DNA of 64,000 bases from a virus. A model generated the notes under the pieces. The model was given only the letters and a program-made list of their open reading frames with translations, was not told where the DNA came from and made no database searches. Of this stretch, positions 16,723 through 43,476 are shown in pieces. The position numbers were made by a program, and so were the translations under genes. Location of the stretch: IMG/VR virus record IMGVR_UViG_3300010218_000004, positions 1 to 64,000 of that record; one strand, written 5' to 3'. Each line of letters starts with the position of its first letter. The first letter of the stretch is position 1.

Positions 16723-16766
16723 CCACAGCCGCGTAGCTACACCCGTAGCGACACACCCCACCCCAT

Positions 16767-16811
16767 GGTCATGACGGTCACCGTTCCCGCCGCAGGTCAT
16801 GACGGTTCACA
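16767..16811. repeat. Direct repeat GGTCATGACGGT x2 (palindromic core GTCATGAC)
   Basis: Copies start at about 16767 and 16794, in the gap between the convergent blocks. Confidence 0.5.
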
Positions 16812-16818
16812 CGCGTAA

Positions 16819-16844
16819 GCCCCCGAGCCTCGATGCTCGGGGGC
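16819..16844. terminator. Hairpin between the convergent blocks, loop CTCGAT
   Basis: GCCCCCGAGC-CTCGAT-GCTCGGGGGC. Confidence 0.65.
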
Positions 16845-16866
16845 CTTCGTGTGTTTCCGGGGCTGG

Positions 16867-17034
16867 TCAGCCGATGACGGTCAGCAGGGCGGCCGGCAGT
16901 TCGTACGCCTGGCCGCTGTCCTCGGCGGTGACTGTCCAGATGTCGCCGCAATAGGCGTCCTGCTCGCCGACGATGGCGGTGCGCAGCGTGCCCTGGATCA
17001 GGACTCGGGCGCCGTTGCGGATGTTCTGCTCCAT
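16867..17034 (-). CDS. Hypothetical small protein (55 aa)
   Basis: Internal ATG with an AAGGAG RBS. Downstream of promoter cassette P1. Confidence 0.55.
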   Translation of the reverse strand: MEQNIRNGARVLIQGTLRTAIVGEQDAYCGDIWTVTAEDSGQAYELPAALLTVIG

Positions 17035-17072
17035 GGTGTTCTCCTTCGTCGGGGGGCTTGTTGCCCCGTCCT

Positions 17073-17110
17073 TGTAGCTACAGCTTGGCATGCCGTGTAG
17101 CTACACGCAA
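17073..17110 (-). promoter_or_regulatory. Promoter cassette P1: TTGCGT(-35)-TGTAGCTACA...-10-TGTAGCTACA
   Basis: Perfect palindromes at 17073-17082 and 17096-17105. The -35 TTGCGT is the complement of 17105-17110. Confidence 0.7.
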
Positions 17111-17176
17111 GGGGGTCGGGGGAGGATGACCATGCCGACCGTCACCCCTCGACCGGGTGGCGGCCGGCGCAGCACG

Positions 17177-17776
17177 TCAGTGGTCCGGCGCGCCGTACAT
17201 GTCGGGGGTTTCGTCGAGGCAGCCGGGGCACATGCAGCGGCACGACTCCTCGTAGCCCGTGCACGGTCCCGGCCGTCCCGGCTCCCCGTCCTCGTGCGCG
17301 AGGACGCCCGGGCACGGCGGCCCCGGGTTCGGGCAGTCGGCGACGGCCATCTCATGCCGGGCGCACCAGGTGCGCATGCCGACGTCCAGCTGTGCGTCAC
17401 CCCAGGCGTGGTCGTACCGTCGGGCGTCCGGCTCCCACGGGCACAACGCCTCCACCGTCGGGAGCGGGCAGGCCGGCGGCCCCATGTGGTCGCCGGGCGC
17501 CGTGTGCCAGGTACGGCCGTCGGGGCCGACCCAGTCCACCCACTCCAGCTCCTCGACGCCGAACCGGGACCGCTGCCGCCACCAGCGGGTAGCGGCGACA
17601 CCGCAGTCCAGGCAACGCCGGTACTCCCTACCGACCGCCTCGTCCCGGTGCCCCAGCTCCCACCGGTGCTCTCCCCACACTGCCCGGGCCCGCTCGGTGA
17701 GCTGCGCACGGAAGGCGTCAACCACGGCCCGGTCGCCGGGCGTCAGGCGGGCGCGCGGGTCGTTACCGCAGCGCAT
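17177..17776 (-). CDS. Hypothetical Cys-rich protein
   Basis: Internal ATG of ORF 17177..17884 that overlaps the upstream stop (TGATG). Confidence 0.6.
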   Translation of the reverse strand: MRCGNDPRARLTPGDRAVVDAFRAQLTERARAVWGEHRWELGHRDEAVGREYRRCLDCGVAATRWWRQRSRFGVEELEWVDWVGPDGRTWHTAPGDHMGPPACPLPTVEALCPWEPDARRYDHAWGDAQLDVGMRTWCARHEMAVADCPNPGPPCPGVLAHEDGEPGRPGPCTGYEESCRCMCPGCLDETPDMYGAPDH

Positions 17777-18051
17777 CACCGGGCCACCGCCGCGAGGCAC
17801 GCCGCGATGATGACCACCGACGGGGTGTCGCTCGGGAAGTCGACGACGGCGCCGTTCGGGCAGGTGAGGCCGGAGTCGTTGCACTCGTTGGTGACCGCGA
17901 ACACGGCACCGTCACGGCGCACCATGCTGAGCGGGTACTCGGGGTCGGCGGTCCAGCCGGCGGCCTCGAGGGCCTCGACGACGTCGACGCGGTCGAGCCA
18001 CCCCGGCTCGGGCCGGTCGAAGGCGATACGGACCCGCCCCGCGGTGCTCAC
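17776..18051 (-). CDS. Hypothetical protein (91 aa)
   Basis: GTGA coupling to the 18048..19037 gene. Tail of ORF 17776..18609. Confidence 0.55.
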   Translation of the reverse strand: MSTAGRVRIAFDRPEPGWLDRVDVVEALEAAGWTADPEYPLSMVRRDGAVFAVTNECNDSGLTCPNGAVVDFPSDTPSVVIIAACLAAVAR

Positions 18052-19037
18052 CGGCCCGCCTCGATGCCGAGGGCCTTCCGGCAGCCGGGGCACGTGACGG
18101 CCCTGCCACGGCCCGCGGGCACCGTCGCCTTCGGGATCTCGCCGCACGCCGTCGCCTGCTTCCCGTATCCGTTCACCGGCACCATGCGGGTCGCGTGGAC
18201 GTTCCGGCCGCCCTTCACCCGGTGACGGCCCTGGTAGTCGTCCGCGCCGGCCGCCTCCGTCTCGCCGGGGCACGGGCACGGCGGGTGTTCGGTGCGAGTC
18301 TCCCGCGTGCCGGAGGCGATGACGCCGCAGGGACCGCGCCCCGTGCACGTGCGATGCCCACACCGGGCGCACGCGTCGGCGGGCGGGGCGGCGAGGAGGA
18401 TCGCTCCGGTCGTCACGGTCTTCCGTTCGACGGTCCAGCCGGCCGCCTCCAGCGTGGCCGCGTACGCGTTGGCCTGACGGCGCGCCTCCGTCCAGCGCTG
18501 AGCGTTGCTCATGCGGGCGGGGTCGAGGACGTTGAGGTTGGGGAACCGGTGGTGCACACGGGCCCGGCCGTCGGTGCCGGCGGTGACGGCGTACCCGGCG
18601 GCCGTGCACGACCCGTAGGCGTTACGGACGGCCGCGGTGTGGGCGGGGGCGAGGAGCAGCGCGGCGGCCCGTACGACCGCGGGGACGGACGGCCCGCAGT
18701 AGTCGTGGTCGTCGCAGCGGCAGGACCCGCAGGTGAGGCAGCGCTCGCCCTTCACCGTGTCGCAGGCGGGGCAGCATCCGCACGCGGCCGCGTCCGGCCC
18801 GTCGCAGTTGTCGCACGGCTCCGGGGCGGGGGTGTCGTCGGCGGTGTCGATGCCGGCGAACAGGTCGAGGGTGCCGCAGCCGTCGTCGGCGGGGGCGTCC
18901 ATGAACGGGAACAGGGACGCCTGTACGGGGCGCACGGGCCGCCCGAAGTCGTCCGGGGTCATCTTGTTCCACGGGCGGCCCTGCGGGCCGTGTGCGGCCG
19001 CCTGGCGGCCGGCGGTGGGCGTCTCGGGGGTGTTCAT
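18048..19037 (-). CDS. Hypothetical Cys-rich protein (329 aa)
   Basis: ORF track entry. Contains many CxxC motifs. Confidence 0.65.
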   Translation of the reverse strand: MNTPETPTAGRQAAAHGPQGRPWNKMTPDDFGRPVRPVQASLFPFMDAPADDGCGTLDLFAGIDTADDTPAPEPCDNCDGPDAAACGCCPACDTVKGERCLTCGSCRCDDHDYCGPSVPAVVRAAALLLAPAHTAAVRNAYGSCTAAGYAVTAGTDGRARVHHRFPNLNVLDPARMSNAQRWTEARRQANAYAATLEAAGWTVERKTVTTGAILLAAPPADACARCGHRTCTGRGPCGVIASGTRETRTEHPPCPCPGETEAAGADDYQGRHRVKGGRNVHATRMVPVNGYGKQATACGEIPKATVPAGRGRAVTCPGCRKALGIEAGR

Positions 19038-19058
19038 CGGTGGGTGTCCCTTCCGGGG

Positions 19059-19466
19059 TCAGGCGGCGGCGCGGTCGGCGCGACGGGCGGCGGCGAGGAG
19101 GTCGTCGTACTGGGTGCGGGTGATGCGGGGGTGGCGCTCCCAGAACTCGCGGAGTTCCTCGGAGGCGTAGCGGGCGGCGCGGGCGAGGGGGCCGGCCCAC
19201 AGGTCGTAGGGGTTGATCCCGGCGGCGCGGCCGGCCTTCGACAGGAGGTAGCCGTTGCAGGCGAGTTCGGCGGCCTGCACCTGCGCCGCGGTGTGCTCGG
19301 CCCACAGGGCGGAGACGGCGTCGTACCGGGCCTTCGTGTCGGCGCGCTTGCGGTCGAGGGCGTCACGGCGGTCGCACTCGCGACGGATGGCGTCCTGCGT
19401 CTTCTCGTCGGCGGTGCCGTACAGCTCGCACAGCTTCTCGTCGGTGAGGTTCCGCAGGCGCTTCAT
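19059..19466 (-). CDS. Hypothetical protein
   Basis: ORF track entry. First gene downstream of P2. Confidence 0.65.
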   Translation of the reverse strand: MKRLRNLTDEKLCELYGTADEKTQDAIRRECDRRDALDRKRADTKARYDAVSALWAEHTAAQVQAAELACNGYLLSKAGRAAGINPYDLWAGPLARAARYASEELREFWERHPRITRTQYDDLLAAARRADRAAA

Positions 19467-19488
19467 CGGGGCTCCCTTCTCCGTGGTG

Positions 19489-19527
19489 TGTAGCTACATC
19501 ATATGCGTGTCGTGTAGCTACACGCAA
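19489..19527 (-). promoter_or_regulatory. Promoter cassette P2
   Basis: TGTAGCTACA at 19489-19498 and 19513-19522. On the minus strand: -35 TTGCGT, -10 TATGAT. Confidence 0.7.
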
Positions 19528-19547
19528 GAGGGTTGGGGGAAACGACT

Positions 19548-19580
19548 TCACCCCCGGCCAGGTCGAGTGGCCGGGGGTGA
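19548..19580 (-). terminator. Hairpin, RNA loop CUCGACC
   Basis: 13-bp stem TCACCCCCGGCCA/TGGCCGGGGGTGA. The plus-strand loop is GGTCGAG. Confidence 0.65.
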
Positions 19581-19593
19581 AGTGCGGGGGACG

Positions 19594-20001
19594 TCAGGGG
19601 CGGGCGGCGAGAATCGCGCGGGCGGAGGCGAGCAGGCCGGCGACCGCCTGCGTCACCGTCTCGCCCGGGCGGACGGTGTTGTTGCGCTCCAGGCAGAACA
19701 CCCGGAACTTCTCCCGCGTCGACCCGAACTCCACCGGCTCGTACGCGGCCAGCCACTCCCGGGCGCGCTCCGCGTCCTGCTCCCACTTCGCCTGCGCCCC
19801 GGCCGCCTGGTTGGCGACCCAGGTGGACTTGCGGCCGAGGGCGCGGGCGGCGCACGCGGTGCCGTAGTAGACGACCTCGCCCTCCTCGTTCCCGTCGACA
19901 TCCAGGGGCATGAGGGCGACGACCCGCTTGAGGCCGCGCCGGGTGCAGCAGCCGCAGGTGTCGGTGTCGTCGTTGATGCCCTTGATGATGAAGCCGGCCA
20001 T
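19594..20001 (-). CDS. Hypothetical protein
   Basis: ORF track entry. Monocistronic between P3 and the hairpin. Confidence 0.65.
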   Translation of the reverse strand: MAGFIIKGINDDTDTCGCCTRRGLKRVVALMPLDVDGNEEGEVVYYGTACAARALGRKSTWVANQAAGAQAKWEQDAERAREWLAAYEPVEFGSTREKFRVFCLERNNTVRPGETVTQAVAGLLASARAILAARP

Positions 20002-20030
20002 GGTGTCCTCCGCGTGTTCCGCGCCGTCCG

Positions 20031-20069
20031 TGTAGCTACAGACTAAGTGCCGTGTGTAGCTACACGCAA
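20031..20069 (-). promoter_or_regulatory. Promoter cassette P3
   Basis: TGTAGCTACA at 20031-20040 and 20055-20064. TTGCGT-N18-TAGTCT. Confidence 0.7.
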
Positions 20070-20140
20070 GCGGGTGGGTGAGCGAAACCGCCCCACCCGG
20101 GAGGGTGCGGCGGACTGGCGAGGAGTGAACGACCGGCGAG

Positions 20141-20173
20141 GCGCACCCCGGCCCGGTCGAGTGGCCGGGGCGC
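20141..20173 (-). terminator. Hairpin, RNA loop ACUCGACCG
   Basis: Stem CCCCGGCC/GGCCGGGG with extensions. The plus-strand loop is CGGTCGAGT. Confidence 0.6.
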
Positions 20174-20186
20174 CGCAGGGGGTGGG

Positions 20187-20525
20187 TCAGGCGGCGAGCG
20201 CCATGCGGGCGACGGCCGCCTTGTACTCGTCCTTCCGCGGTCGGTAGTTGGCGCGCAGCACGGCGACCTGGGCCGGCGTGTACCGGTAGGAGGGGCGCAG
20301 CCGGTCGGCGTCCCGGTGGGTGCGCGCCACCTTCACCGGCTGCACGTTGAGGCGCTTCGCGACGGAGCGCAGGCCGGAGGCGACGCCGTCGGCGGTCTTC
20401 GCGTCGACCCCGGCGGCGAGGGCGTGCGTCTTGAGGGAGCGGCCCCGGCGGAGGGAGGTGACGAGGCGGGTGGCGGCGGAGCGCTCGCGGATGATGCGGC
20501 GGGCGGTGCGTGAGTTCTGGTTCAT
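20187..20525 (-). CDS. Hypothetical basic protein
   Basis: ORF track entry. Lies between P4 and the hairpin. Confidence 0.65.
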   Translation of the reverse strand: MNQNSRTARRIIRERSAATRLVTSLRRGRSLKTHALAAGVDAKTADGVASGLRSVAKRLNVQPVKVARTHRDADRLRPSYRYTPAQVAVLRANYRPRKDEYKAAVARMALAA

Positions 20526-20566
20526 CGGTGCCTCCTGTGCTGTCCGGCCGGGCCGTCCCCGTTCCG

Positions 20567-20604
20567 TGTAGCTACAGACTAAGTGCTGTGTAGCTACACA
20601 CCAA
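20567..20604 (-). promoter_or_regulatory. Promoter cassette P4
   Basis: TGTAGCTACA at 20567-20576 and 20589-20598. TTGGTG-N17-TAGTCT. Confidence 0.65.
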
Positions 20605-20640
20605 GGGGGTTTTGCCTGGTCAAGCCACCGAAAAACGCGG

Positions 20641-20671
20641 CCGCCCCCGTCAGGTCGAGTGACGGGGGCGG
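20641..20671 (-). terminator. Hairpin, RNA loop CUCGACC
   Basis: CCGCCCCCGTCA-GGTCGAG-TGACGGGGGCGG. Confidence 0.65.
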
Positions 20672-20687
20672 CCGGCGCGCGCAGGGG

Positions 20688-21056
20688 TTAGGCGGCCTGG
20701 CGACGCAGGCGCCGGGTGTTGCGGAGGAAGTTGCGGGCGGCGTCACGCCGCATGCGCTCGAGGTCGTTCGTGATCGCGCACGTGCTCTGCGACTCGCTGC
20801 GCTCCAGCAGGAGTTCGGTGCACTCCTCGCGGACGCTGTCCAGGGCCTCGAGGGCGCCGGCCTTCTCTAGGCGGTTGAGCACCTGCCGCCACGGCAGGGC
20901 CTCCGCCTGGGCCGTCATGACGGGCTTGAGGGTGTGGGCGTCGATGTAGCCGCCGGTGGAGACGACGTCGGCGAGCGCCTTGCGGGCCCGGCCCTCGGTG
21001 TCGATGGCGCAGCCGGCGTTGAAGCGGATCGTCTCGGCGAGGTCGGTGTTCGTCAT
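20688..21056 (-). CDS. Hypothetical protein
   Basis: ORF track entry. Downstream of P5. Confidence 0.65.
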   Translation of the reverse strand: MTNTDLAETIRFNAGCAIDTEGRARKALADVVSTGGYIDAHTLKPVMTAQAEALPWRQVLNRLEKAGALEALDSVREECTELLLERSESQSTCAITNDLERMRRDAARNFLRNTRRLRRQAA

Positions 21057-21100
21057 GTCGGGCTCCCTGTCGGGGTGGTGGGGCGGTCCGTCCCGCTCCG

Positions 21101-21138
21101 TGTAGCTACAGACTAGAGGTGCGTGTAGCTACACGCAA
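21101..21138 (-). promoter_or_regulatory. Promoter cassette P5
   Basis: TGTAGCTACA at 21101-21110 and 21124-21133. TTGCGT-N17-TAGTCT. Confidence 0.7.
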
Positions 21139-21206
21139 GGGGGTTGGGGGAGATGGCTGCGCCCCGACGGGACTACCTCCCGCCGGGGCGCAGCGCACGC
21201 GGCACG

Positions 21207-21650
21207 TCACACGGCCACCGGCTGCAACTCCTCCCGAGTTACCGCGTCGTCGGCCGGGGGCACGTGGTGGACGATGCACGTGCCGGAGTTGCAGGGCCGG
21301 CCCACCTCTCCGTCCCAGTAGGCGCGGTGCGCGTCGATGGCGGCGGCCTCCCAGTCGTCGCCATCGGTGAACTCCGGGCGCCGCTCGGCCCACTTGGCGA
21401 ACGCGCGGGCCAGGTCGGGGCGGGTGTAGAACTCGGACAGGCCGTGGTACTTCACCAGGTTGACCCAGGAGGCCCGGACGGAGTCGTAGGAGCGGCGGGA
21501 GTAGTCGTGGCCGCTGCTGGGGTCGATGTCCTCAAGGGCGGTACCCGACTCGATACAGAGGGCGGTACGGGCGTCCGCCATCGATGTGCGGTTGTCGGCC
21601 ATCCCGTGACAGTTGGCGTAGCGCATGATCAGGAACGTGGAGCGCTTCAT
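21207..21650 (-). CDS. Hypothetical protein
   Basis: ORF track entry with a GAGGAGG RBS. It has no promoter cassette of its own and lies behind the hairpin at 21691-21727. Confidence 0.65.
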   Translation of the reverse strand: MKRSTFLIMRYANCHGMADNRTSMADARTALCIESGTALEDIDPSSGHDYSRRSYDSVRASWVNLVKYHGLSEFYTRPDLARAFAKWAERRPEFTDGDDWEAAAIDAHRAYWDGEVGRPCNSGTCIVHHVPPADDAVTREELQPVAV

Positions 21651-21690
21651 GCGGCCCCTCCTCGATGGTTGTGCGGCGTGTGGTCGGGGT

Positions 21691-21727
21691 GGGCCGCCCC
21701 TGCCCGGTCGAGTGGCGGGGGCGGCCC
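21691..21727 (-). terminator. Intra-operon hairpin, RNA loop ACUCGACCG
   Basis: 14-bp stem with one mismatch. The plus-strand loop is CGGTCGAGT. Confidence 0.55.
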
Positions 21728-21743
21728 GTGGTGGTGCCGGGTG

Positions 21744-22088
21744 TCAGGCGAGCGTGTTGAGCGGGATACGGAGCGGGGCGCCGGTGAACGGGATCTCCGC
21801 GAGGAGGTCGCGGAGCCGTTCGGCGCCCGCGATCCGCCTCCGGGCCTGCTCGGCGAACGGGTTGCCCTCCTCCGGGGCGTGCGCGAGGAGCGGCACGAAC
21901 AGGAACCCGCCGGAGGCGTTGCGCAGGACGCCCTCGGTGAGGGACCAGCGCCGGCGGTCGAAGTTCACGAGAATCGTGAGCGACTCGAAGGTGCCGATGC
22001 GCTCCTCCACCGCGGCCGCCTGACGGGCGGCCCGGATGAGGTCCGGCGAGATGTAGTCGACGGAGAGTTCAGCGGCAGTGTTGTGCAA
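21744..22088 (-). CDS. Hypothetical protein
   Basis: TTG start six nt after a GGGAGGA RBS, inside ORF 21744..22166. The upstream part of that ORF is the promoter cassette. Confidence 0.55.
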   Translation of the reverse strand: MHNTAAELSVDYISPDLIRAARQAAAVEERIGTFESLTILVNFDRRRWSLTEGVLRNASGGFLFVPLLAHAPEEGNPFAEQARRRIAGAERLRDLLAEIPFTGAPLRIPLNTLA

Positions 22089-22129
22089 GGGGAATCCTCC
22101 CTGGTGGGCCGGGGCCCTGCGCCCTGGCG

Positions 22130-22168
22130 TGTAGCTACAAGCTAAGTGGCCTATGTAGCTACACACAA
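22130..22168 (-). promoter_or_regulatory. Promoter cassette P6
   Basis: TGTAGCTACA at 22130-22139 and 22154-22163. TTGTGT-N18-TAGCTT. Confidence 0.65.
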
Positions 22169-22180
22169 GGGGTCGGGTGA

Positions 22181-23092
22181 TCAGAAGAACGCGACCTGAC
22201 CAGGCTCTACCGGCTCCTCCGGCGCGTCATCGACGACGTCGACGGGCACGGCCGCACGGAACGCGGCCGCCACCTCCGCCGTGCTCCGGCCCGGCACGTT
22301 CCCCCACATCAGGACCGTCCCCCGAAGCTGCCGCGCCGCCTCCCAGTCGTCGCCGCTGAGGTTCAGCGGGCCACCCGTCAGGTGTTCGACGAGCAGCCGG
22401 GGAACGGCCGGCCGCACCGCCCAGTAGGCGCGCCACGCATCACTCTCGGCCGAAGACGGCTTCGCCGCGACGAGTGCCCGGTCCAGGGCGTGGAGCATCG
22501 TGCACGGCGCCGAGTCGACGTACCCGGCCGGGTCGTGCGTCTCCCCGCCCGGCCGGTGCCCGACGTCCTCGATGTGCGCGGCCGCCCACTCCAGCACGCC
22601 CGCCACGGTCACCGGGCGCAGCGCACGCGCAGGCCGGCCCGGCCGTACAGCGGCCGCCAGGACGTCGTCCGCGACCCCGGCGGCCTCCCGGAACAGGGCG
22701 GCCACGTCGGCGCCCGTACGCCCCTCCTGCATGCCCCAGTGGTGCACGACGAACCGGCGGTGCCGCTCCTCGTCGGCCCATTCCATGTCGTGCACCATCG
22801 CGCCGCCGGCGGCGAGGTCGGAGACGACGTCGAGGGCCAGGCGCGCCGCGGCCCGGATCGCCGGATAGTCGTAGGTGCGGGCGCTGGCCATTCGGCCGTC
22901 GCCGCCGGCGACGTCGAGGGCGCCGAGGATGCCCGGGCGCAGGAGCCGTGTCGTGGTGGTGGAGCCGTCCCGGCCGAACCGTTCGCCGTCGCGGCCGTCG
23001 TGGAACCCGCGGGCCTCGATGTGCGCGGCCGCCCACTCGAGCAGGTCGGGCGCCGTGGTCGGCAGGACGGTGGACTCGACGCTGTAACGCAT
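22181..23092 (-). CDS. Hypothetical protein with an internal tandem domain duplication
   Basis: LLEWAAAHIEARGFHDG... and VLEWAAAHIEDVGHRPGG... each begin a ~130-aa repeat that ends in ...GR(T/S).A(D/E)VAA.FR.AA.V. Confidence 0.65.
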   Translation of the reverse strand: MRYSVESTVLPTTAPDLLEWAAAHIEARGFHDGRDGERFGRDGSTTTTRLLRPGILGALDVAGGDGRMASARTYDYPAIRAAARLALDVVSDLAAGGAMVHDMEWADEERHRRFVVHHWGMQEGRTGADVAALFREAAGVADDVLAAAVRPGRPARALRPVTVAGVLEWAAAHIEDVGHRPGGETHDPAGYVDSAPCTMLHALDRALVAAKPSSAESDAWRAYWAVRPAVPRLLVEHLTGGPLNLSGDDWEAARQLRGTVLMWGNVPGRSTAEVAAAFRAAVPVDVVDDAPEEPVEPGQVAFF

Positions 23093-23119
23093 GATGCCTC
23101 CGTAGGGGCGTGCAGGGGT

Positions 23120-23150
23120 GCGCCCGGGCGCGGTCGAGGGGCCCGGGCGC
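23120..23150 (-). terminator. Intra-operon hairpin, loop contains GGTCGAG
   Basis: GCGCCCGGGC-GCGGTCGAGGG-GCCCGGGCGC. Confidence 0.55.
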
Positions 23151-23164
23151 GGAGATCGGGTGGG

Positions 23165-23368
23165 TCAGGCGGTGGCGGTGGCGGCGATGGCCTCGCGGCG
23201 CAGCGCGTAGCCGTAGCCGAGGAAGCCGTTCGCGGTGTCCTCGACGGGCCGGCCGTTCGCGTCGAAGGCGCGGAAGGTGCCGAGGTGGCCGGTGACGTAG
23301 CCCTTGCGGACGCCGTTGCGGTAGACGTCGAGGCGGCCGTGTCCGGCGCGGCGGGTGGTGACGTGCAT
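23165..23368 (-). CDS. Hypothetical small protein (67 aa)
   Basis: ORF track entry, flanked by two conserved-loop hairpins. Confidence 0.55.
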   Translation of the reverse strand: MHVTTRRAGHGRLDVYRNGVRKGYVTGHLGTFRAFDANGRPVEDTANGFLGYGYALRREAIAATATA

Positions 23369-23401
23369 GGGTGACTCCTCGAGAGTGTCGGAACGGGTGA
23401 T

Positions 23402-23436
23402 GCGGGCTCCGGCGCGGTCGAGGTGCCGGAGCCCGC
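23402..23436 (-). terminator. Intra-operon hairpin, loop contains GGTCGAG
   Basis: GCGGGCTCCGGC-GCGGTCGAGGT-GCCGGAGCCCGC. Confidence 0.55.
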
Positions 23437-23447
23437 CCGGGCGGGGA

Positions 23448-24128
23448 CTACGCCCGCAACGTGGTCAGGATGTTCACGGCGCCCTCGACGGCCGTGACCG
23501 AGTCGCGGCCGACGTGCACGGCCGCCGCGTACCAGCCGCCCCCCGTGCAGGGCGCCATCAGCTGGTATCCCTCGCAGTCGCCGTAGCAGTCGCGCGCCTC
23601 GCACTCCATCACCCAGAAACGGCCGCCCGACAGCTGCTTGAGGGAGCCGTGGTAGGTGACCTGGGTACCGTCGCGCAGCGGCACGGGGCGCACCGGGCGC
23701 ACCGGCGCGGGAGCCTGGTACGGCTCCGGCTCGACGTCGACGGCGAGGCCCTGCCCGGCCGCCTGGCGGGCGTTGACGACCTGCGCCGCGCCCTGGCGGA
23801 GGTTGCGGGTCGTACCGGCGGCGAAGAAGTCGCCGTTGACGACGTCGAACCACTCGACGTGCACGCGGGTGCCCGCGCCCTGGAGGAGGACGCCGACGAC
23901 GTCGCCGCCCTGCACGACCTTCCAGCCGCGCACGGTGAGGAGGAACTGCGCCTCGTCCCAGCCGCGGGTGTTGAGGCCGGCGGCCGCCCACTCCCAGTCC
24001 GCGAGCTCGGCGGGCAGCATGCCCTCCAGGGTGACGGTGACGTCGCCGACGGTGCGGAGGACCAGGGCGCCCGCCGCGTCGCGCTCGCCGGCGAGGACGT
24101 TGCGGGTGGTGAAGGTGATCGCCTTCAT
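23448..24128 (-). CDS. Hypothetical protein
   Basis: ORF track entry. First gene downstream of P7. Confidence 0.65.
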   Translation of the reverse strand: MKAITFTTRNVLAGERDAAGALVLRTVGDVTVTLEGMLPAELADWEWAAAGLNTRGWDEAQFLLTVRGWKVVQGGDVVGVLLQGAGTRVHVEWFDVVNGDFFAAGTTRNLRQGAAQVVNARQAAGQGLAVDVEPEPYQAPAPVRPVRPVPLRDGTQVTYHGSLKQLSGGRFWVMECEARDCYGDCEGYQLMAPCTGGGWYAAAVHVGRDSVTAVEGAVNILTTLRA

Positions 24129-24172
24129 GGTGGCCTCCGTGGAGGTTGGTGGTGCGGGTCCGTCCCGCTCCG

Positions 24173-24211
24173 TGTAGCTACACTCTAAGGAGTTTGTGTA
24201 GCTACACGCAA
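24173..24211 (-). promoter_or_regulatory. Promoter cassette P7
   Basis: TGTAGCTACA at 24173-24182 and 24197-24206. TTGCGT-N18-TAGAGT. Confidence 0.7.
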
Positions 24212-24239
24212 GCCTGGTTCGGCCAGGAATCTCAACCCA

Positions 24240-25349
24240 TCACGCGGAGGCGCACAGTTCCCCCACCTCGTCCCGCAACGCGGCCACCACATCCGCGTCG
24301 AGGGAGTACCGGGCGACCTCCTCATCAGTCGGCACCCAGCCGGTCGGCCGCTTCCGCCACGTGTGCGTGAACGGCACGCCCTCCACGCAAGCCCACGCCT
24401 GCCGCATCCGCTCCTGCAACTCCTCCGCCGCGGCCCGCTTCTCCCACTCCGCCAACCACCGCGCACGCTCGACGCACCGCCGCTCCTCCTCGGCCCAGAA
24501 CGCCCGGGAGCGGCGGGCCTGCTCCTCACCGCCGCGCAGTGGCCGCAGAGGCTCCCGCCACCGGTTACGCGGCAACTCGACCGGAGTGGGGCGCACACGC
24601 TCCCACGCCGCCAGCGCGCGGCGTCCGTCGACGGTCGGCGTGATGTGGCGGCGGCCGCCGTCGTCGGGATCGCCGACCGTCAGGAACCAGGCGTCGGTGA
24701 GGGCATCGAGCGGGGTGGCGGCGACGCGGCGCCCAACGCGGCCCGGTGCGGTGACGCGGCGCAGCACGCCAGCGGCGTCGATGAGGAGTTGCCCGGCGGC
24801 GGCCCACGTCACGAGGTCGGCATGCCGGGTGGACCAGTGCAGGGCGGCGGCCTGCTCCTCCAGGCGGTGCTCATCGTGCACGTCTACGGCCGGCTCCTCC
24901 ACCACCGTCTCGACGGCCGACTCCTCAACAGCCGGCTCCTCGAGGGCCGTCTCGGCGGCCGGCTCCTCGATGGCCGCGGCCGGCTGCTCAACGACAGGCT
25001 CGGCTACGGGAGCGACAGGGGCGGCCTCGACCGCCACCGGGGCGGTCTCACGGACGCGGGGGCCCGAGTTCATGATCGACGTGAACGGGCGGCCGCTGTC
25101 GCTGTACCGGACGGAGACGCGGAACGGGAAACCGCTAGCGTCCGTCCTTTCCTCGATCTCGTCGGCGTTGGCGGCGATGACCTCCTCGGCGTGCCGGCTG
25201 TAGACGACGACGTACGTGTAGAGGCGCTCGCCGTTGCGGTACTCGCCGGTGACCCGGAAGTCTCCGCCGCGCCCCTGAGTCAGGCCGAGGCGGCGCAGCT
25301 CGCGGGCGAGTCCGACGGTGGGGGTGGTGGGCGGGGCGATGAGGGTCAT
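24240..25349 (-). CDS. Hypothetical protein with an acidic EEPA(V/A)E repeat linker
   Basis: Internal ATG with an AAGGAG RBS. The upstream part of ORF 24240..25451 is promoter sequence. Confidence 0.65.
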   Translation of the reverse strand: MTLIAPPTTPTVGLARELRRLGLTQGRGGDFRVTGEYRNGERLYTYVVVYSRHAEEVIAANADEIEERTDASGFPFRVSVRYSDSGRPFTSIMNSGPRVRETAPVAVEAAPVAPVAEPVVEQPAAAIEEPAAETALEEPAVEESAVETVVEEPAVDVHDEHRLEEQAAALHWSTRHADLVTWAAAGQLLIDAAGVLRRVTAPGRVGRRVAATPLDALTDAWFLTVGDPDDGGRRHITPTVDGRRALAAWERVRPTPVELPRNRWREPLRPLRGGEEQARRSRAFWAEEERRCVERARWLAEWEKRAAAEELQERMRQAWACVEGVPFTHTWRKRPTGWVPTDEEVARYSLDADVVAALRDEVGELCASA

Positions 25350-25385
25350 GATGGCTGCTCCTTCCGGGGGCCGATCGCCCCGTTG

Positions 25386-25423
25386 TGTAGCTACAGCTTG
25401 CCTGATCGTGTAGCTACACGCAA
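25386..25423 (-). promoter_or_regulatory. Promoter cassette P8
   Basis: TGTAGCTACA at 25386-25395 and 25409-25418. -35 TTGCGT. Confidence 0.65.
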
Positions 25424-25451
25424 GGAATGTTGTGCCAGATCGGCGAGACAA

Positions 25452-25931
25452 TCACAGTCGGGGCAGAAACTCATCGAACGCGGCCTCCGCGGCCTCCGCG
25501 TGCGTGACCGGCGTGAGGGTGACGAAGGGCTCCGTGTCGCCCCACGTCACGCTGGCGCCCGTCGAGGGGTTCAGGAACGTCCCCTCCCACGGTCCGCGGG
25601 AGCGTTCGCCGACGGTGCCGCCCTCAACGAGGGAGACCTCGGCGCGCACGGTGCTACTCCCGGGGACTGCTCCGGACCACTCGGGCCCGGCGGCCTGGTC
25701 CCTCACCTGCTCGGGGAACACCGGCCGGTAGTAGGCACGGATGATGTCGGCGGCGTCCGGGGCGAGGTCGGCGTCGCCGGCGTGGATGAGGGTCCGGAAG
25801 ACGCTCCGGTGCCCCTTCCCCCACTCCTCGGCCCTGAGGGCGAGTTCCGTTGCGGCGTCGATGATGGCGTCGGGCATGACGTCCAGTTCGGCGGCGAGCG
25901 CGAGGGCGCTGACGTTGACACGGGTGCGCAT
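25452..25931 (-). CDS. Hypothetical protein
   Basis: ORF track entry. Confidence 0.6.
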   Translation of the reverse strand: MRTRVNVSALALAAELDVMPDAIIDAATELALRAEEWGKGHRSVFRTLIHAGDADLAPDAADIIRAYYRPVFPEQVRDQAAGPEWSGAVPGSSTVRAEVSLVEGGTVGERSRGPWEGTFLNPSTGASVTWGDTEPFVTLTPVTHAEAAEAAFDEFLPRL

Positions 25932-26027
25932 GACGATCGGTCCTTCCAGGGGTGGGATGGCGGGGCGCCCCGACGGGGGATGTCGGGGCGGTTGCGGCGC
26001 TGGGTATGGGGCAGGGGGGTTGCGGGG

Positions 26028-26270
26028 TCAGCGGTTGCCCGTCGCCGGCGGGGTGTCGGCGTCGGCGTCGGGGAGGGCGTTGCGGAGGCCCCTGTCGCAC
26101 CCCGTCCCGTCGGCGGTTCGCGATGCGGTCTCGTAGGCGCGTCGGGCTTCGGTGGCCCCAGCGGTGAGCCGCTCCGCGGCGGCGCGAGCGTCGGCGGCGG
26201 CCTTCTCCATCTGTAGTGCTGCGACGTACAGGGCGCTGATCAGTTCGGGCGCAGGCTCCGGGGTGGCCAC
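26028..26270 (-). CDS. Hypothetical protein
   Basis: ORF track entry. Confidence 0.5.
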   Translation of the reverse strand: MATPEPAPELISALYVAALQMEKAAADARAAAERLTAGATEARRAYETASRTADGTGCDRGLRNALPDADADTPPATGNR

Positions 26271-26274
26271 CGAC

Positions 26275-26463
26275 TTAGCCCCTGCCCGCGACGATCACCG
26301 GCTGATGCTTCGGGTAGGTGACCTGATCTCCGTTGGAGTAGGTGATCGTCACGGTGTCTGCCTCTTCCTCGACTCGGTCGACGAGGTACGGGAACGGGTC
26401 GTCCTCGCGGATCACTCGGTCGTTGCGAGTGAGGCTGTCGGCGGTGGTGATGCTGGCCTTCAT
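26275..26463 (-). CDS. Hypothetical small protein
   Basis: ORF track entry with a GGAGGA RBS. First gene downstream of P9. Confidence 0.55.
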   Translation of the reverse strand: MKASITTADSLTRNDRVIREDDPFPYLVDRVEEEADTVTITYSNGDQVTYPKHQPVIVAGRG

Positions 26464-26506
26464 GGGAGTCCTCCGTGGAGATTAGTGGGGCGACTTGCCT
26501 GCTGCG

Positions 26507-26545
26507 TGTAGCTACACTTTAAAGGTAATGTGTAGCTACACGCAA
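26507..26545 (-). promoter_or_regulatory. Promoter cassette P9
   Basis: TGTAGCTACA at 26507-26516 and 26531-26540. TTGCGT-N18-TAAAGT. Confidence 0.7.
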
Positions 26546-26557
26546 GGGGTGGTGGGC

Positions 26558-26935
26558 TCAAAGGCCGATCGCGCCCCGCGCCCCTTCCGGGGCGGTCTCC
26601 GGGTTCCCGTCCCACGGGTTCTCGGGGTCCTCGCCGTCCAGGAGGATCGGGTCGGGGTCGGGGGCGTCGACGTCGCACCAGCACGGGCGGCGCGTCTTGC
26701 AGTCCGCGCACCACGTCGGCGACGGCGCGCACCCGGGCCGGTAGCAGCCCTCGTCCCAACACAGCGGGCAGACGTCCCGGTTGTCGCGGGTGCGGTGCCA
26801 GCCACGGGAGCGGAGGAGCCGGCGGATCTTCTCTGCCGTGGTGTGCCACGGGTACAGGCCGCGCCCCTCGGCCGGGCACGCGGTGCCGGGCCCTCCGGGT
26901 GTGCCGTCGCAGCCGATGACGAGTCGAATGGTCAC
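26558..26935 (-). CDS. Hypothetical Cys-rich protein
   Basis: ORF track entry. Contains CPLCWDEGC...CADCKTRRPCWC. Confidence 0.6.
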   Translation of the reverse strand: MTIRLVIGCDGTPGGPGTACPAEGRGLYPWHTTAEKIRRLLRSRGWHRTRDNRDVCPLCWDEGCYRPGCAPSPTWCADCKTRRPCWCDVDAPDPDPILLDGEDPENPWDGNPETAPEGARGAIGL

Positions 26936-27225
26936 GACGTCTCACCCCCGCGCGGCGCCCAGGCGGGGCAGTGGACGCGCAGGCCGGCGTCCAGGTCGCG
27001 CCCGGCGTTGCAGCCCTCCGGCCAGCCGGGGTGCTGCTCGTACGGGCCCTCCTCCGCCGGCTCGTAGTGCACGCACGTCTTGCAGGCCCGGACGGCCGGG
27101 TTCTGCCAGCAGCGGCCGATGTGCGCCGTGGCGGCCGCCTTCTTCGCCCGGGTGATGCGGCAGAACGGGCACTGATGCCGGACGACGACGACGGGGATGG
27201 GCAGGGTGACGAGTGTGGGCTTCAA
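26932..27225 (-). CDS. Hypothetical zinc-finger-like protein
   Basis: Contains CPFC...CKTC...C..C. The stop overlaps the next start. Confidence 0.6.
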   Translation of the reverse strand: MKPTLVTLPIPVVVVRHQCPFCRITRAKKAAATAHIGRCWQNPAVRACKTCVHYEPAEEGPYEQHPGWPEGCNAGRDLDAGLRVHCPAWAPRGGETS

Positions 27226-27290
27226 TGCAGCCTCCTCCTCGCATGGTTGGGCCCGGCCGCCGGGGTGGGCGGCCGGGCGTACGGGCAGGG

Positions 27291-27983
27291 TCAGGGGCGG
27301 CTGACGTTGCGGGCGATGTTGTCCAGGGAGGCCCGGATCTCGTCGAGGACGGCGATGAGGGCCTGGGTCTCCGCGGACGGGCGCGGCGCCGGCTCCGGCA
27401 TCCGCTTCGGGCCCTGACGGCGGGCGAGGAGGACGTCATACGCCCGGTTGAATCGGTCGTCGGCGAGCTTGAGCCCGGTGAACGCCCCCGACGCGTAGAC
27501 CCGGAAGTCACCGACGAGCAGCACGTGTCCCTCCTCCTCGTCGAAGGAGGCGTGCACGCTGTAGAGGCTGCGCTGCGGGTCGGCGTGCGCCAGCAGGGCG
27601 GGGACGAGGCGGCCGTCGCGCGCGGTGGCCGGCTCGATGGGGGTGATGCCGAGTTCGGCGAGGTGCGTGTTGACGTCCTTCGCGAGGTCGGCGACCCACT
27701 CCGCGCTGTAGCGCTCGGCCTCGGCCTCCCGGGCGGCGTACTTCGCCTCCTCCACGGCGAGCCAGTCCGGGGTGACGTCACCGGTCGCCCAGGAGTCCTC
27801 GACGGCCGCCTCCGACAGCCCGTACTGCGTGGCGTACGAGAGGGCGCGGTCGCGGACGCGGAAGCGGGCCGGGTTCGTCTCCTGCGGGCTGAGCCGCACC
27901 ACGTAGCGGGCGGGCTGCTCCTCCATGACGTCCGCCTCTACGGTGCTCTCCGGCTCGCGAGCGGCGTTGGTGTCGGTGCTCAT
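27291..27983 (-). CDS. Hypothetical protein
   Basis: ORF track entry. Confidence 0.65.
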   Translation of the reverse strand: MSTDTNAAREPESTVEADVMEEQPARYVVRLSPQETNPARFRVRDRALSYATQYGLSEAAVEDSWATGDVTPDWLAVEEAKYAAREAEAERYSAEWVADLAKDVNTHLAELGITPIEPATARDGRLVPALLAHADPQRSLYSVHASFDEEEGHVLLVGDFRVYASGAFTGLKLADDRFNRAYDVLLARRQGPKRMPEPAPRPSAETQALIAVLDEIRASLDNIARNVSRP

Positions 27984-28009
27984 GGTGTTCCCTTCAATCG
28001 GTGGGTGCC

Positions 28010-28038
28010 GCGCCCCGGTAGGTCGAGGACCGGGGCGC
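28010..28038 (-). terminator. Intra-operon hairpin, loop contains GGTCGAG
   Basis: GCGCCCCGGT-AGGTCGAGG-ACCGGGGCGC. Confidence 0.55.
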
Positions 28039-28052
28039 AGCGTGACGGGCGG

Positions 28053-28463
28053 TCAGTGCTGGTCGAAGAGGTGGACGTCGACGGACTCCTCGCCGACGCT
28101 GATGCGGTACGCGAGGTAGTCGTCCGCGGTGTCCGTGTGGACGATGCGGACGGGGAACTCCGCGCCCGCCCAGGTGCGCACCCTCGGGTCGAGGGTGGCG
28201 TCGATGTAGTGCGTGGCGACCCAGGCGGCGGCGTAGTCGTCGAGGGTGCCGGCGTGCATGACGCCGTCGATGAGGAACACGTACCGGGTCGGGGCCTCGC
28301 CGGTGCGGACGGGCTCCCATTCGCCGCCCGGCTCGCGGTACACGGCGGTGAGGTGGGACGCCTCGGCGGCGACCTCCTCGGCCGTCACGCGGTCGGCGGC
28401 GGGCAGGAGCGTGCTGGTCACGGCGAGGGTGGCCCAGTCGCGTTCGGTGTCGGTGGCGAGCAT
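28053..28463 (-). CDS. Hypothetical protein
   Basis: Internal ATG after a GGAGAAAGGA RBS. First gene downstream of P10. Confidence 0.6.
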   Translation of the reverse strand: MLATDTERDWATLAVTSTLLPAADRVTAEEVAAEASHLTAVYREPGGEWEPVRTGEAPTRYVFLIDGVMHAGTLDDYAAAWVATHYIDATLDPRVRTWAGAEFPVRIVHTDTADDYLAYRISVGEESVDVHLFDQH

Positions 28464-28499
28464 GCGGTGTCCTTTCTCCGGCCGCCCCATGCGGTCCGG

Positions 28500-28538
28500 T
28501 GTAGCTACACGCTATGGGGGCGTGTAGCTACGCGTCAA
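28500..28538 (-). promoter_or_regulatory. Promoter cassette P10
   Basis: TGTAGCTACA at 28500-28509 and TGTAGCTACg at 28523-28532. TTGACG-N18-TAGCGT. Confidence 0.65.
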
Positions 28539-28556
28539 GCGGTTGATGAGGATTCG

Positions 28557-28614
28557 TGTACCTACACGGCGACGCACACGATCACTTGCGCATGTAGCTA
28601 CATGGCTGTACGGT
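28557..28614 (+). promoter_or_regulatory. Divergent rightward promoter with the same operator (P11)
   Basis: TGTAcCTACA at 28557-28566 and TGTAGCTACA at 28593-28602, lying inside TTGCGC(28586)-N17-TACGGT(28609). The ATG at 28622 lies 8 nt after the -10, so the mRNA is probably leaderless. Confidence 0.55.
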
Positions 28615-28621
28615 GACCGGC

Positions 28622-28921
28622 ATGATGACCCCCGGATACCTCCCCGAGACCCACACCCCGCCCCGTCAGGTACGCATCGGCGACGAGTGGTACGAGTTGC
28701 AGGCCGCCCTCGAGCTGATGGGAGGCAGCGCCATCGGCGGCGGTTCCGAGCGCGCGGAGAACCTGCGCGACTACATCGCCTGGTTTACGCGCCAGCCCGG
28801 GGCGACCATGCCGAAGCGGCCGCCGGCCGAGATGCGGGACCAGATCGTCAAGCGCGGCGCCGAGTTGAAGGCGGAGGCGGAGGCCAAGGCCAAGGCCCGC
28901 ACCCGGAAGAGGAGCGCGTGA
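28622..28921 (+). CDS. Hypothetical small protein with a Lys/Ala/Glu-rich basic tail
   Basis: ORF 28613..28921. ATG 28622 is preferred because of the promoter geometry. Confidence 0.55.
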   Translation: MMTPGYLPETHTPPRQVRIGDEWYELQAALELMGGSAIGGGSERAENLRDYIAWFTRQPGATMPKRPPAEMRDQIVKRGAELKAEAEAKAKARTRKRSA

Positions 28922-31146: not shown

Positions 31147-31404
31147 GTGCCGCCGGACGATGACGACCCCTACCTCGACACCGCGCAGGTGGGAGAGCGA
31201 ATCGGCGTCACCCCGGCGACTGTCCGCCTGTACCTCAAGCGCACCCGGAAACGGCTCTCCGACGGGTTGAAGGTGCGCCCGCAGGATCTCCCGTTGCCCG
31301 ACGGCCAGTTCCGTCGGTCCCCGGTGTGGCATGAGTCGACGATCACCGCATGGGTCGCGCGCCGTCCCGGCCGCGGGCACCGCGCGCCGGAGGAGCAGCC
31401 GTAA
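31147..31404 (+). CDS. HTH DNA-binding protein (excisionase/MerR-like)
   Basis: YLDTAQVGERIGVTPATVRLYLKR is a helix-turn-helix. GTG start after a GGGAG RBS. Confidence 0.55.
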   Translation: MPPDDDDPYLDTAQVGERIGVTPATVRLYLKRTRKRLSDGLKVRPQDLPLPDGQFRRSPVWHESTITAWVARRPGRGHRAPEEQP

Positions 31405-31813: not shown

Positions 31814-32073
31814 TGGGCGCCTTCGGCAACTTCGTTCGCAGTCTCGTCGGCGGTAACGACCACGAACTCGCCGCCACCCAGTACGCGGGCCGTGAGTCCG
31901 CCTCCGCGGCCGCCGCCCGCAAGACGGCCGAGCGGGAGCAGCGGGCGGCCGAGCGCCGCCGTCAGCAGCACCGTTCCAGCGGCATCCGTGAGGCGTCCCG
32001 GGCCAGCGAGCGGTGGGAGGCCGGCGACCGTCGCAGGCAGCGCACCGGCGCCAGCTGGAACCGCACCGCCTAA
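31813..32073 (+). CDS. Hypothetical highly charged protein
   Basis: TGATG coupling to the preceding gene. ORF track entry. Confidence 0.5.
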   Translation: MGAFGNFVRSLVGGNDHELAATQYAGRESASAAAARKTAEREQRAAERRRQQHRSSGIREASRASERWEAGDRRRQRTGASWNRTA

Positions 32074-32085
32074 CCCCCGCAGACC

Positions 32086-32121
32086 GGCAGCCCCCGCGAA
32101 CCTCCCCCCGCGGGGGCTGCC
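32086..32121 (+). terminator. 13-bp-stem hairpin without a U-tract
   Basis: GGCAGCCCCCGCG / CGCGGGGGCTGCC. Confidence 0.4.
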
Positions 32122-32143
32122 ACGCTTCCAGGAGGAACCTCCC

Positions 32144-37043: not shown

Positions 37044-37144
37044 GACTGTCGTCCCCTCGTCCTCGTCGTGGGTGCTCATACCCGGTGGTACGTCTCGGTG
37101 ATCGTTGTTGCTCATTGTGCAATGCCCGGGCGTGCTCGCCTCAG

Positions 37145-43460: not shown

Positions 43461-43476
43461 TGTAGCTACACGCAAG
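43461..43476. promoter_or_regulatory. Single TGTAGCTACA operator copy (with the CGCAAG flank) upstream of the late genes
   Basis: TGTAGCTACACGCAAG is identical to the -35-proximal half of cassettes P1-P9. Confidence 0.6.

Follow-up and report, generated by a model that had tools for sequence, protein, structure and literature searches.

A 64,000-nt stretch of phage DNA (IMG/VR virus record IMGVR_UViG_3300010218_000004, positions 1 to 64,000; 72% G+C), referred to here as the window, was found to contain a leftward block of small genes in which the same promoter, carrying two copies of a short palindrome, precedes each of ten transcription units. Dimers of a ribbon-helix-helix (RHH) protein, bound in the promoter spacer and at the start site, would quite likely shut all ten promoters, and the same protein would also repress its own gene. 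Comparative evidence supports the 99-aa product of the gene at 28622-28921, which runs divergently from the leftward block, as the cognate binding protein.

Ten leftward promoters with paired palindromes

The palindrome TGTAGCTACA was present in 21 perfect copies in the window, compared to 0 copies in each of 100 dinucleotide-preserving shuffles. The 8-bp core GTAGCTAC was found in 23 exact copies and in two more with one mismatch, and all of the core copies were intergenic. Nineteen of the 21 perfect 10-mers lay inside ten cassettes on the minus strand, and the remaining two were located at 28593, in the promoter of the regulator itself, and at 43461. Most of the approximately 22 genes in the block have no known family, and a Pfam family (DUF6197) was assigned to one only. 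The block, the cassettes with the genes that each is predicted to drive, and two further sites are as follows:

16867..28463, minus strand: leftward block, approximately 22 small genes in ten units
28500..28538, minus strand: cassette 1, TTGACG-c-GTAGCTACAC-N7-TAGCGT-GTAGCTACAC; unit 28463..26558 (4 genes); also O1 and O2 of the divergent switch
26507..26545, minus strand: cassette 2, -10 TAAAGT; genes from 26463 down to 25452
25386..25423, minus strand: cassette 3, CAAGCT class; 369-aa gene 25349..24240
24173..24211, minus strand: cassette 4, -10 TAGAGT; genes 24128..22181, including the DUF6197 protein
22130..22168, minus strand: cassette 5, -35 TTGTGT, -10 TAGCTT; genes 22088..21207
21101..21138, minus strand: cassette 6, -10 TAGTCT; gene 21056..20688
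20567..20604, minus strand: cassette 7, -35 TTGGTG, palindromes 22 bp apart, -10 TAGTCT; gene 20525..20187
20031..20069, minus strand: cassette 8, -10 TAGTCT; gene 20001..19594
19489..19527, minus strand: cassette 9, -10 TATGAT; genes from 19466 down to approximately 17177
17073..17110, minus strand: cassette 10, CAAGCT class; last leftward gene 17035..16867
43461..43470, minus strand: lone palindrome, CTTGCGT plus palindrome, a half cassette without palindrome B, between the ParB-methyltransferase gene and the next gene
16733..16752, unstranded: site after thyX, GTAGCTAC and a degenerate GTAGCGAC 4 bp apart at a convergent junction; also in the relative L015

The half cassette at 43461-43470 points leftward into the 3' end of the ParB-methyltransferase gene, and similar single-operator promoters were seen in the relatives L001 and L002.

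The ten minus-strand cassettes align as CTTGCGT-GTAGCTACAC-N6-8-hexamer-GTAGCTACAC, where the hexamer is TAnnnT or CAAGCT, and a cassette precedes the first gene of every leftward unit. The distance from the start of the first palindrome (A) to the start of the second (B) was found to be 22 bp in one cassette, 23 bp in four and 24 bp in five. All ten are followed by a GGAG-type Shine-Dalgarno-like motif and by a start codon 31-53 nt after the start of palindrome B, and the gene starts downstream of the cassettes agree with independent JGI gene calls on the source contig. Streptomyces promoters of the housekeeping sigma factor (HrdB type) consist of a -35 element TTGnnn and a -10 element TAnnnT with 16-18 nt between them. 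This pattern was present in 8 of the 10 window cassettes.

An original prediction made from the window sequence alone had described a promoter with two operators, that is, a -35 TTGCGT, palindrome A in a 17-18 nt spacer, a TAnnnT-type -10 and palindrome B over the predicted transcription start, and this description agrees with the aligned cassettes. All ten cassettes were found where it had placed them, its count of 21 perfect copies far above chance was reproduced, and the recounted distances fall within its range of 22-24 bp from start to start. Some details were revised. The TAGTCT-, TAGAGT- or TAAAGT-like -10 elements that it had placed everywhere are present in eight cassettes, but those at 17073 and 25386 carry CAAGCT, and the 17-nt spacer that it had assigned to two cassettes was counted in four of the aligned sequences. 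Palindrome A of the cassette at 28500 has only the 8-bp core (cGTAGCTACg). The 15-mer GGAGCGGGACGGACC, which was thought to be shared by several leaders, occurs as an exact copy in two leaders only, and the others contain GC-rich hairpin variants.

A motif scan of related genomes, which had been suggested as a check, showed that the cassette recurs, with 51 copies (one possibly a reverse-strand artefact) in four elements. These were the window, two IMG/VR contigs of approximately 98-99 kb found by an exact-pattern scan, and a prophage of Streptomyces nogalater JCM 4799 found by a genome pattern scan; the genes that these relatives share with the window have 69-84% DNA identity. Across the 51 cassettes, the only positions with close to maximal information were CTTGCGT, the two palindromes and, in the -10, the T, A and T; the spacer filler and the flanks were at background. 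The palindromes were spaced 23 bp apart in 28 cassettes and 24 bp apart in 22, thus 23-24 bp in 50 of the 51, and the -10 hexamer was TAnnnT in 39, CAAGCT in 11 and GGGCGT in one. This conservation pattern is the signature of selection on a -35 element, a -10 element and two presumptive protein-binding sites. Multiplication of the leftward promoter type, ten-fold or more, is a peculiarity of the window lineage. When the block was compared by megablast to phage and plasmid collections, there was no phage match and the only plasmid match was a 200-bp fragment, and the cassette DNA matched nothing among 50,697 phage records except, by chance, an Erwinia phage.

In 37 of the 51 cassette leaders, a GC-rich hairpin (free energy ≤ -8 kcal/mol, 5-nt loop) was found approximately 4 nt after the predicted 5' end. 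The sequences of the stems vary and the pairing is retained; examples are located on the minus strand of the window at 24150-24172, 21078-21100 and 25362-25385, and others at loci L003, L007, L012, L013 and L098. This hairpin may stabilise the 5' end or be recognised by an RNA-binding regulator. A reading of palindrome B itself as an RNA hairpin was dropped, as a perfect palindrome without a loop is not credible as a hairpin and the conserved hairpin sits just downstream. Strong hairpins (-23 to -35 kcal/mol) without U-tracts were found just upstream of the cassettes at 21101, 19489, 20031 and 26507, and a consensus scan for classical terminators found one only (20674-20638, minus strand). The strong hairpins probably terminate the preceding unit, and since they precede several of the cassettes, the block looks like ten insulated, identically controlled units. 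The (G)GGCAAGCT that stands in place of TAnnnT in 11 of the 51 cassettes forms a second promoter class that recurs across related elements. Promoters with GGCAAGCT may be weaker, or read by another sigma factor, resulting in two timing classes under one repressor.

The repeats might not be transcriptional elements at all, being instead a mobile or recombination-prone repeat or the sites of a DNA modification or restriction enzyme. The promoter-plus-leader modules (approximately 50-115 bp) are alike, suggesting spread by duplication, and the phage encodes a ParB-methyltransferase and DpdA. However, the copies are intergenic and stand on the transcribed strand in a fixed register with the -35, the -10, the Shine-Dalgarno sequence and the start codon, and the four-operator geometry described below is preserved in unrelated elements, so that we regard a non-transcriptional function as scarcely credible.

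The 99-aa protein and its proposed four-operator switch

Genomes were scanned with the pattern GTAGCTACA-N12-15-GTAGCTAC, and 120 loci were retrieved by the DNA pattern alone (locus counts from these searches are among the matches listed). The scan was unspecific, with many chance matches in unrelated phyla, yet it returned enough actinomycete loci to be decisive. When the window proteins were compared by tblastn to 136 loci, the 99-aa protein was the only one that matched at pattern-retrieved palindrome loci. Its homologues were found at 20 of the 136 loci, with 38-89% identity and within approximately 150 bp of the palindromes; 17 of these loci had been retrieved with the bare paired-palindrome pattern and 3 by a search of viral contigs for the -35 plus palindrome. 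They came from Streptomyces, Kitasatospora, Peterkaempfera, Micromonospora and uncultured viral contigs. A hidden Markov model of the family recovered the identical 20 loci and nothing in approximately 115 unrelated loci. Together with the window, these make up the 21 loci counted below. From its second methionine, the 99-aa protein is identical to a protein on JGI metagenome contig Ga0136213_1000014 (97,787 bp).

The linkage supports the original view that one symmetric DNA-binding protein serves all of the promoters, and it names that protein as the product of 28622-28921. This gene was among five candidates that had been put forward as helix-turn-helix proteins, but its product is likely of the RHH type and not of the helix-turn-helix type, and the four other candidates had no link to the palindrome outside this phage lineage. 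The Xre-like protein (36642-37151) had no match in any retrieved locus, with the relatives incompletely covered. The sigma-region-4-like protein (31147-31404) and the protein 6641-7282 were found in phage relatives only and are absent from the chromosomal palindrome loci.

Paired GTAGCTACA copies approximately 22-23 bp apart were also seen at the start of a gene at loci L021, L038, L045, L075, L111 and L130, from Acidimicrobiia and other actinomycete metagenome-assembled genomes. The product of this gene begins ...VGVRDLKNNLS and is antitoxin-like, and these pairs appear to be an unrelated use of the same palindrome.

Between the leftward block and the regulator gene, cassette 1 is joined by the following features:

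28556..28567, unstranded: operator O3, GTGTACCTACAC, with one core mismatch, between the divergent promoters, 34 bp from O2 and 36 bp from O4
28586..28614, plus strand: regulator promoter, -35 TTGCGC, 17-nt spacer with O4 (TGTAGCTACA, 28593-28602), -10 TACGGT (28609-28614)
28622..28921, plus strand: coding region of the 99-aa ribbon-helix-helix-like protein, proposed as the repressor that recognises all the palindromes

The plus strand upstream of the regulator gene reads TTGCGC-a-TGTAGCTACA-tggctg-TACGGT, and the ATG at 28622 follows after 7 nt. No Shine-Dalgarno sequence was found before this ATG in the window. Since the -10 element is just 7 nt before the ATG and a Shine-Dalgarno sequence is missing, the regulator mRNA is predicted to be leaderless. 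O1 lies over the +1 of the leftward promoter and O2, 23-24 bp off, lies in the spacer of that promoter; O3 is 34-35 bp beyond O2, between the promoters, and O4 is 34-36 bp beyond O3, in the spacer of the regulator promoter. At 13 of the 21 loci, the window included, the operators were spaced 23-24, 34-35 and 34-36 bp, respectively, and six further loci had the core layout with an extra copy or one altered gap. The distance from the start of O4 to the regulator ATG was 26-29 nt in 20 of the 21 loci (27-28 nt in 18), and a TAC(G/C)(G/C)T hexamer is located 6-7 nt ahead of the ATG at the switch loci. The in-frame 'VAT' reading of O4, found at many loci, was considered as coding sequence and dropped, as it follows from the fixed -27 distance and the window frame has a stop. 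The linear 155-kb plasmid CP108999.1 of Streptomyces sp. NBC_00708 carries one dual-operator promoter and a regulator gene of the autoregulated type, and this module adjoins replication-relaxation and conjugation-like genes.

The operator core was found to differ between subfamilies of the protein, which were grouped according to the residue that the N-terminal strand has between its two nearly invariant arginines:

R-Q-x-R: core GTAGCTAC; 20 loci; a 21st locus, L100, reads R-P-I-R
R-K-F-R: operator TTGTGGCCACAA, core GTGGCCAC, with some hybrid half-sites; 3 loci
R-S-V/I-R: operator GGTGTACGTACACC, core GTACGTAC; 4 loci

The R-K-F-R and R-S-V/I-R loci have essentially the same layout, with O3 or an upstream copy absent in several. 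The clearest R-K-F-R locus has operators at -121, -97, -62 and -27 from the ATG, the same positions as in the R-Q-x-R loci, and the other two have three or four sites that are partly degenerate or hybrid. At the R-S-V/I-R loci, an operator pair flanks the -10 of the divergent promoter, one copy is found at -27/-28, and O3 is missing. A core that changes with the strand is what direct readout by an RHH beta-ribbon would predict, and the correspondence is suggestive. The strand residue between the arginines (Q, K or S) may set the central bases of the palindrome, which would amount to a simple, readable recognition code.

These loci also bear on whether another protein, either a host factor or one of the phage helix-turn-helix candidates, binds the palindromes and the 99-aa gene is merely a target of the regulon. 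The core is invariant across regulators that are 33-50% identical, perhaps from the constraint of a conserved host factor, and the window protein has no direct family assignment. However, no other gene co-occurs with the palindromes across the loci, among the matches listed, and in two further subfamilies the operator core shifts with the beta-strand of the neighbouring protein, which argues against a fixed host factor. We consider another binder very unlikely.

The regulator family comprises 629 representatives at 50% identity (E ≤ 0.001), and the listed members with a source name are all but three called 'hypothetical'; one source says 'CopG family'. Family members occur in prophage-like regions of Streptomyces, Kitasatospora, Peterkaempfera, Micromonospora, Actinomadura and Streptosporangium and on the linear plasmid. 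The Pfam model RHH_1 was matched by 1 of 18, 3 of 60 and 19 of 110 family members (best E 8.2e-5), and RHH_4, RelB and TacA1 were matched by single members. The link to RHH proteins is transitive, because only distant members match; family members were found at E ≤ 1e-10. In the family alignments, P-R-Q-x-R-I is followed by a helix, a G-T/S-E-R turn and a second helix, which is the RHH pattern of an N-terminal beta-strand in which polar and hydrophobic residues alternate, then two helices with a G-x-S/T/N type turn between them. The AlphaFold model of the window protein has an extended N-terminus and helices at residues 22-32 and 43-55 (predicted local distance difference test score 84), and that of a 70-aa homologue has an extended N-terminus and helices at 17-27 and 32-43. 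The strand does not form in the model of the monomer, as would be the case for a protein that is an obligate dimer. In the phage and plasmid subfamily, a further, long helix is present at the C-terminus (residues 69-98). Taken together, the assignment of the family to the RHH fold is likely. The members P0123, P0125 and P0130 are single chains of 207-247 aa with three tandem RHH-like domains, and a chain of this kind could span several operators.

Proposed repression and its alternatives

Under the proposed mechanism, each unit would have its own promoter of the housekeeping-sigma type, in which one copy of the palindrome GTGTAGCTACAC fills the spacer between the -35 and the -10 and a second copy, which begins right after the -10, extends over the predicted transcription start. 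The predicted positions of the palindromes are approximately -33 to -24 in the spacer and -6 to +4 at the start. A dimer of the 99-aa protein would bind each palindrome and place its beta-ribbon in the major groove, and two dimers per promoter would exclude RNA polymerase; at 23-24 bp from centre to centre they would be on roughly one face of the helix and may cooperate. The ten units would be silent together while the protein is present and would fire together once it is absent or inactivated. With O4 in the spacer of the regulator's own promoter, the protein would also repress its own leaderless gene, and this location implies negative autoregulation. With protein at either palindrome an open complex could not form, and a 17-18 nt spacer is optimal as it stands, so that repression is far likelier than activation. 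The cassette anatomy, its conservation, the linkage of the gene to the operators in the genomes and the covariation of beta-strand and operator core are direct observations, and from them we infer the binding, the repression over activation, the oligomeric state and the biological role of the 99-aa protein.

If the palindromes were positive elements, they would be activator sites or parts of a special promoter for a phage factor such as the sigma-region-4-like protein (31147-31404). The hexamers are weak by E. coli standards, CAAGCT in 11 of the 51 cassettes hints at a second promoter class, and the small sigma-region-4-like protein is conserved in phage relatives. In contrast, one site filling the spacer and another over the +1 are the classical positions of a repressor, the spacer length is already optimal, unlike that of MerR-type activated promoters, and the same cassette is present in loci without a sigma-like protein. 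Positive control is therefore judged highly improbable.

Several observations stand against repression by an RHH protein. A scan with the E. coli consensus found no promoter in the block, since the -35 and the -10 hexamer each agree with it at only 3 of 6 positions; we put this down to a limit of the consensus and do not count it against the promoters. In two window cassettes, those at 17073 and 25386, CAAGCT replaces TAnnnT. The window protein had no match to Pfam, NCBIfam or PHROG models. A Foldseek search of both structural models against the PDB gave nothing at E ≤ 0.001; the best superposition was on the Mycobacterium tuberculosis VapB12 antitoxin (7e4j_A, E = 7, template modeling score 0.63 by target length, root-mean-square deviation 2.7 Å over 39 columns), which is an RHH protein. 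A sequence search of the PDB with the regulator gave spurious antibody (light-chain) matches only. Alignment by hhalign to approximate sequences of Arc, Mnt, CopG, ParD, NikR and MetJ was uninformative; it gave at best P = 0.03 (NikR), with helix-turn-helix controls equally poor. The three specificity classes possibly represent only two evolutionary switches, which makes the covariation suggestive and not statistical, and L100 has an R-P-I-R strand yet the GTAGCTAC core. Finally, no induction mechanism is evident, and no integrase was seen in the 64-kb window, so that a temperate lifestyle is tentative.

As to the role of the putative repressor, maintenance of a prophage or plasmid state is considered more likely than an early lytic shut-off, because no regulator other than a protein of the 99-aa type stands at the divergent switch, either in prophage-like loci or on the plasmid. 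With the same protein and operators, an early shut-off factor similar to Cro or to P22 Arc would close the ten promoters as it accumulates after they have fired on infection, and the block would supply a burst of host-takeover functions. Like typical phage early genes, those under the ten promoters are small and for the most part belong to no known family, and the regulator appears to be autoregulated negatively from a simple promoter, where nothing points to positive autoregulation. Neither an integrase nor a RecA-cleavable repressor domain was seen in the window, and the Xre-like gene at 36642-37151, with a weak match to the PHROG 'transcriptional repressor', could encode the true lysogeny repressor. 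However, at the divergent switch of the chromosomal prophage-like loci and of the plasmid, the usual seat of a maintenance repressor, there is no regulator but the small gene, and the Xre-like gene was not detected in the cassette-bearing relatives, which are incompletely covered. An early shut-off role is thus considered unlikely.

Genomic setting and related repressor systems

Outside the regulon, the window contains the following structural genes:

45075-46403: large terminase
49508-52690: portal-NUDIX hydrolase-Mu-F-like head morphogenesis fusion, a single 1060-aa protein
58594-59847: tail tube protein

A rightward block contains replication, recombination and DNA-modification genes, including those for RusA, SSB, a YhhQ-like transporter, DpdA and ThyX. 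The genes for the YhhQ/Vut_1-like transporter and DpdA are adjacent at 9051-10531, and this pair suggests that the phage DNA carries 7-deazaguanine modifications. The region 37837-39868 encodes an MmyB-like regulator together with a type III polyketide synthase of the chalcone-synthase family; both are conserved in the relative L012 and look like cargo ('moron') genes. The G+C content dips to 0.66 at 36000-38000. The repeated GCGGATGCGCA (33068-34318) was considered as a set of iterons and ruled out, as the six-fold repeat encodes the peptide ADAQP; the gene that carries it (33504-34469) encodes an acidic 321-aa protein with a hydrophobic C-terminus.

Close homologues of the 99-aa protein were found on contigs of 97-99 kb in several other assemblies, and since contigs of this size recur, the element is probably a replicon or complete genome of approximately 98 kb. 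The JGI source contig ends inside a DUF2637 gene, and the window (31988-33502) reads through it. A circularly permuted genome and a phage-plasmid are both possible forms of the element. The 64 kb of the window would make up most of an actinomycete phage or phage-plasmid genome of approximately 98 kb.

The phiC31 repressor (gene c) and its conserved inverted repeats were reportedly described by Ingham and co-workers in 1994 and by Wilson and co-workers in 1995. That repressor is a large helix-turn-helix protein with several isoforms, and its inverted repeat is present in many intergenic copies near early promoters and near its own gene. The present system is similar in that one repressor of a Streptomyces phage would act at a highly conserved, repeated inverted repeat that is also found at the repressor gene. 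It differs in having a 99-aa protein of the RHH type and two operators per promoter in a fixed register with the -35, the -10 and the +1. A phiC31-like concept, as first proposed for these cassettes, therefore holds as an analogy, but the regulator and the cassette are unmatched in the 50,697 phage records: a tblastn search of these with a member of the regulator family gave no match, the presence of phiC31 among them being unverified.

Arc and Mnt of phage P22 are small RHH repressors of the immI region, each acting at one locus on a single operator with half-sites approximately one helical turn apart. Arc binds between the -35 and -10 of Pant, and both proteins exclude or trap RNA polymerase and regulate their own synthesis. 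A small RHH protein, a symmetric operator inside the promoter and autoregulation are common to these and to the present system, whereas here there are at least 22 sites in the 64-kb window, pairs 23-24 bp apart and a four-operator switch. No sequence similarity of the regulator to Arc or Mnt was detected, the comparison to approximate reference sequences being uninformative. The omega protein of pSM19035/inc18 in Firmicutes binds arrays of 7-bp heptads upstream of promoters, and F55 of the archaeal virus SSV1 binds tandem direct repeats. In these systems also, one small RHH master regulator acts on several promoters of a mobile element through repeated short sites; in contrast, the sites here are perfect palindromes of 10-12 bp, two per promoter, inside the core promoter and in actinomycete hosts.

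The gp71 repressor of mycobacteriophage L5, a helix-turn-helix protein, acts at the stoperators of Cluster A phages, which are asymmetric sites of 13-14 bp, oriented with transcription, that mostly block elongation away from promoters. Both are actinobacteriophage systems in which the site of one repressor, putative in the present case, is repeated; in L5, dozens of copies are scattered over the genome and silence it in lysogeny. The sites described here are perfect palindromes within promoters, in fixed register with the -35 and -10, and do not have the properties of stoperators. The synthetic promoters PLtetO-1 and PLlacO-1 have two identical operators in the core promoter and are tightly repressed, and strong when the repressor is absent. 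The cassettes share the two identical operators in the core promoter, but they are natural and reused, with one operator in the spacer and one over the +1.

The predicted system is best described as a mobile-element repressor-operator regulon that belongs to neither the phiC31 nor the L5 type. It is set apart by a regulator from an uncharacterised RHH family, by promoters with two operators in fixed positions, by a conserved leaderless switch with four operators and by apparent specificity classes. In full-text literature searches, no description was found of the palindrome motif, of the regulator family, or of a precedent for an RHH phage repressor in Streptomyces. It is possible, and is put forward tentatively, that prophages, phage-plasmids and linear conjugative plasmids are held under master control by repressors of one unrecognised, actinomycete-wide RHH family, which act through a stereotyped leaderless module with four operators.

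To our knowledge, very few Streptomyces elements, in essence phiC31 and some plasmids with Kor or TraR repressors, are understood as to how lysogeny or plasmid carriage is controlled. The pair described here is a concrete, testable regulator and operator and is apparently common. The dual-operator promoter and the three apparently separate specificities (GTAGCTAC, GTGGCCAC and GTACGTAC) could serve as tight, independent switches for Streptomyces engineering. Shared operators also offer a way to ask about cross-immunity between unrelated mobile elements. Many unrelated elements share the identical GTAGCTAC operator, and if this family does have such a master role, a resident element could silence the early genes of an incoming one, giving rise to cross-immunity networks among the mobile elements of Streptomyces.

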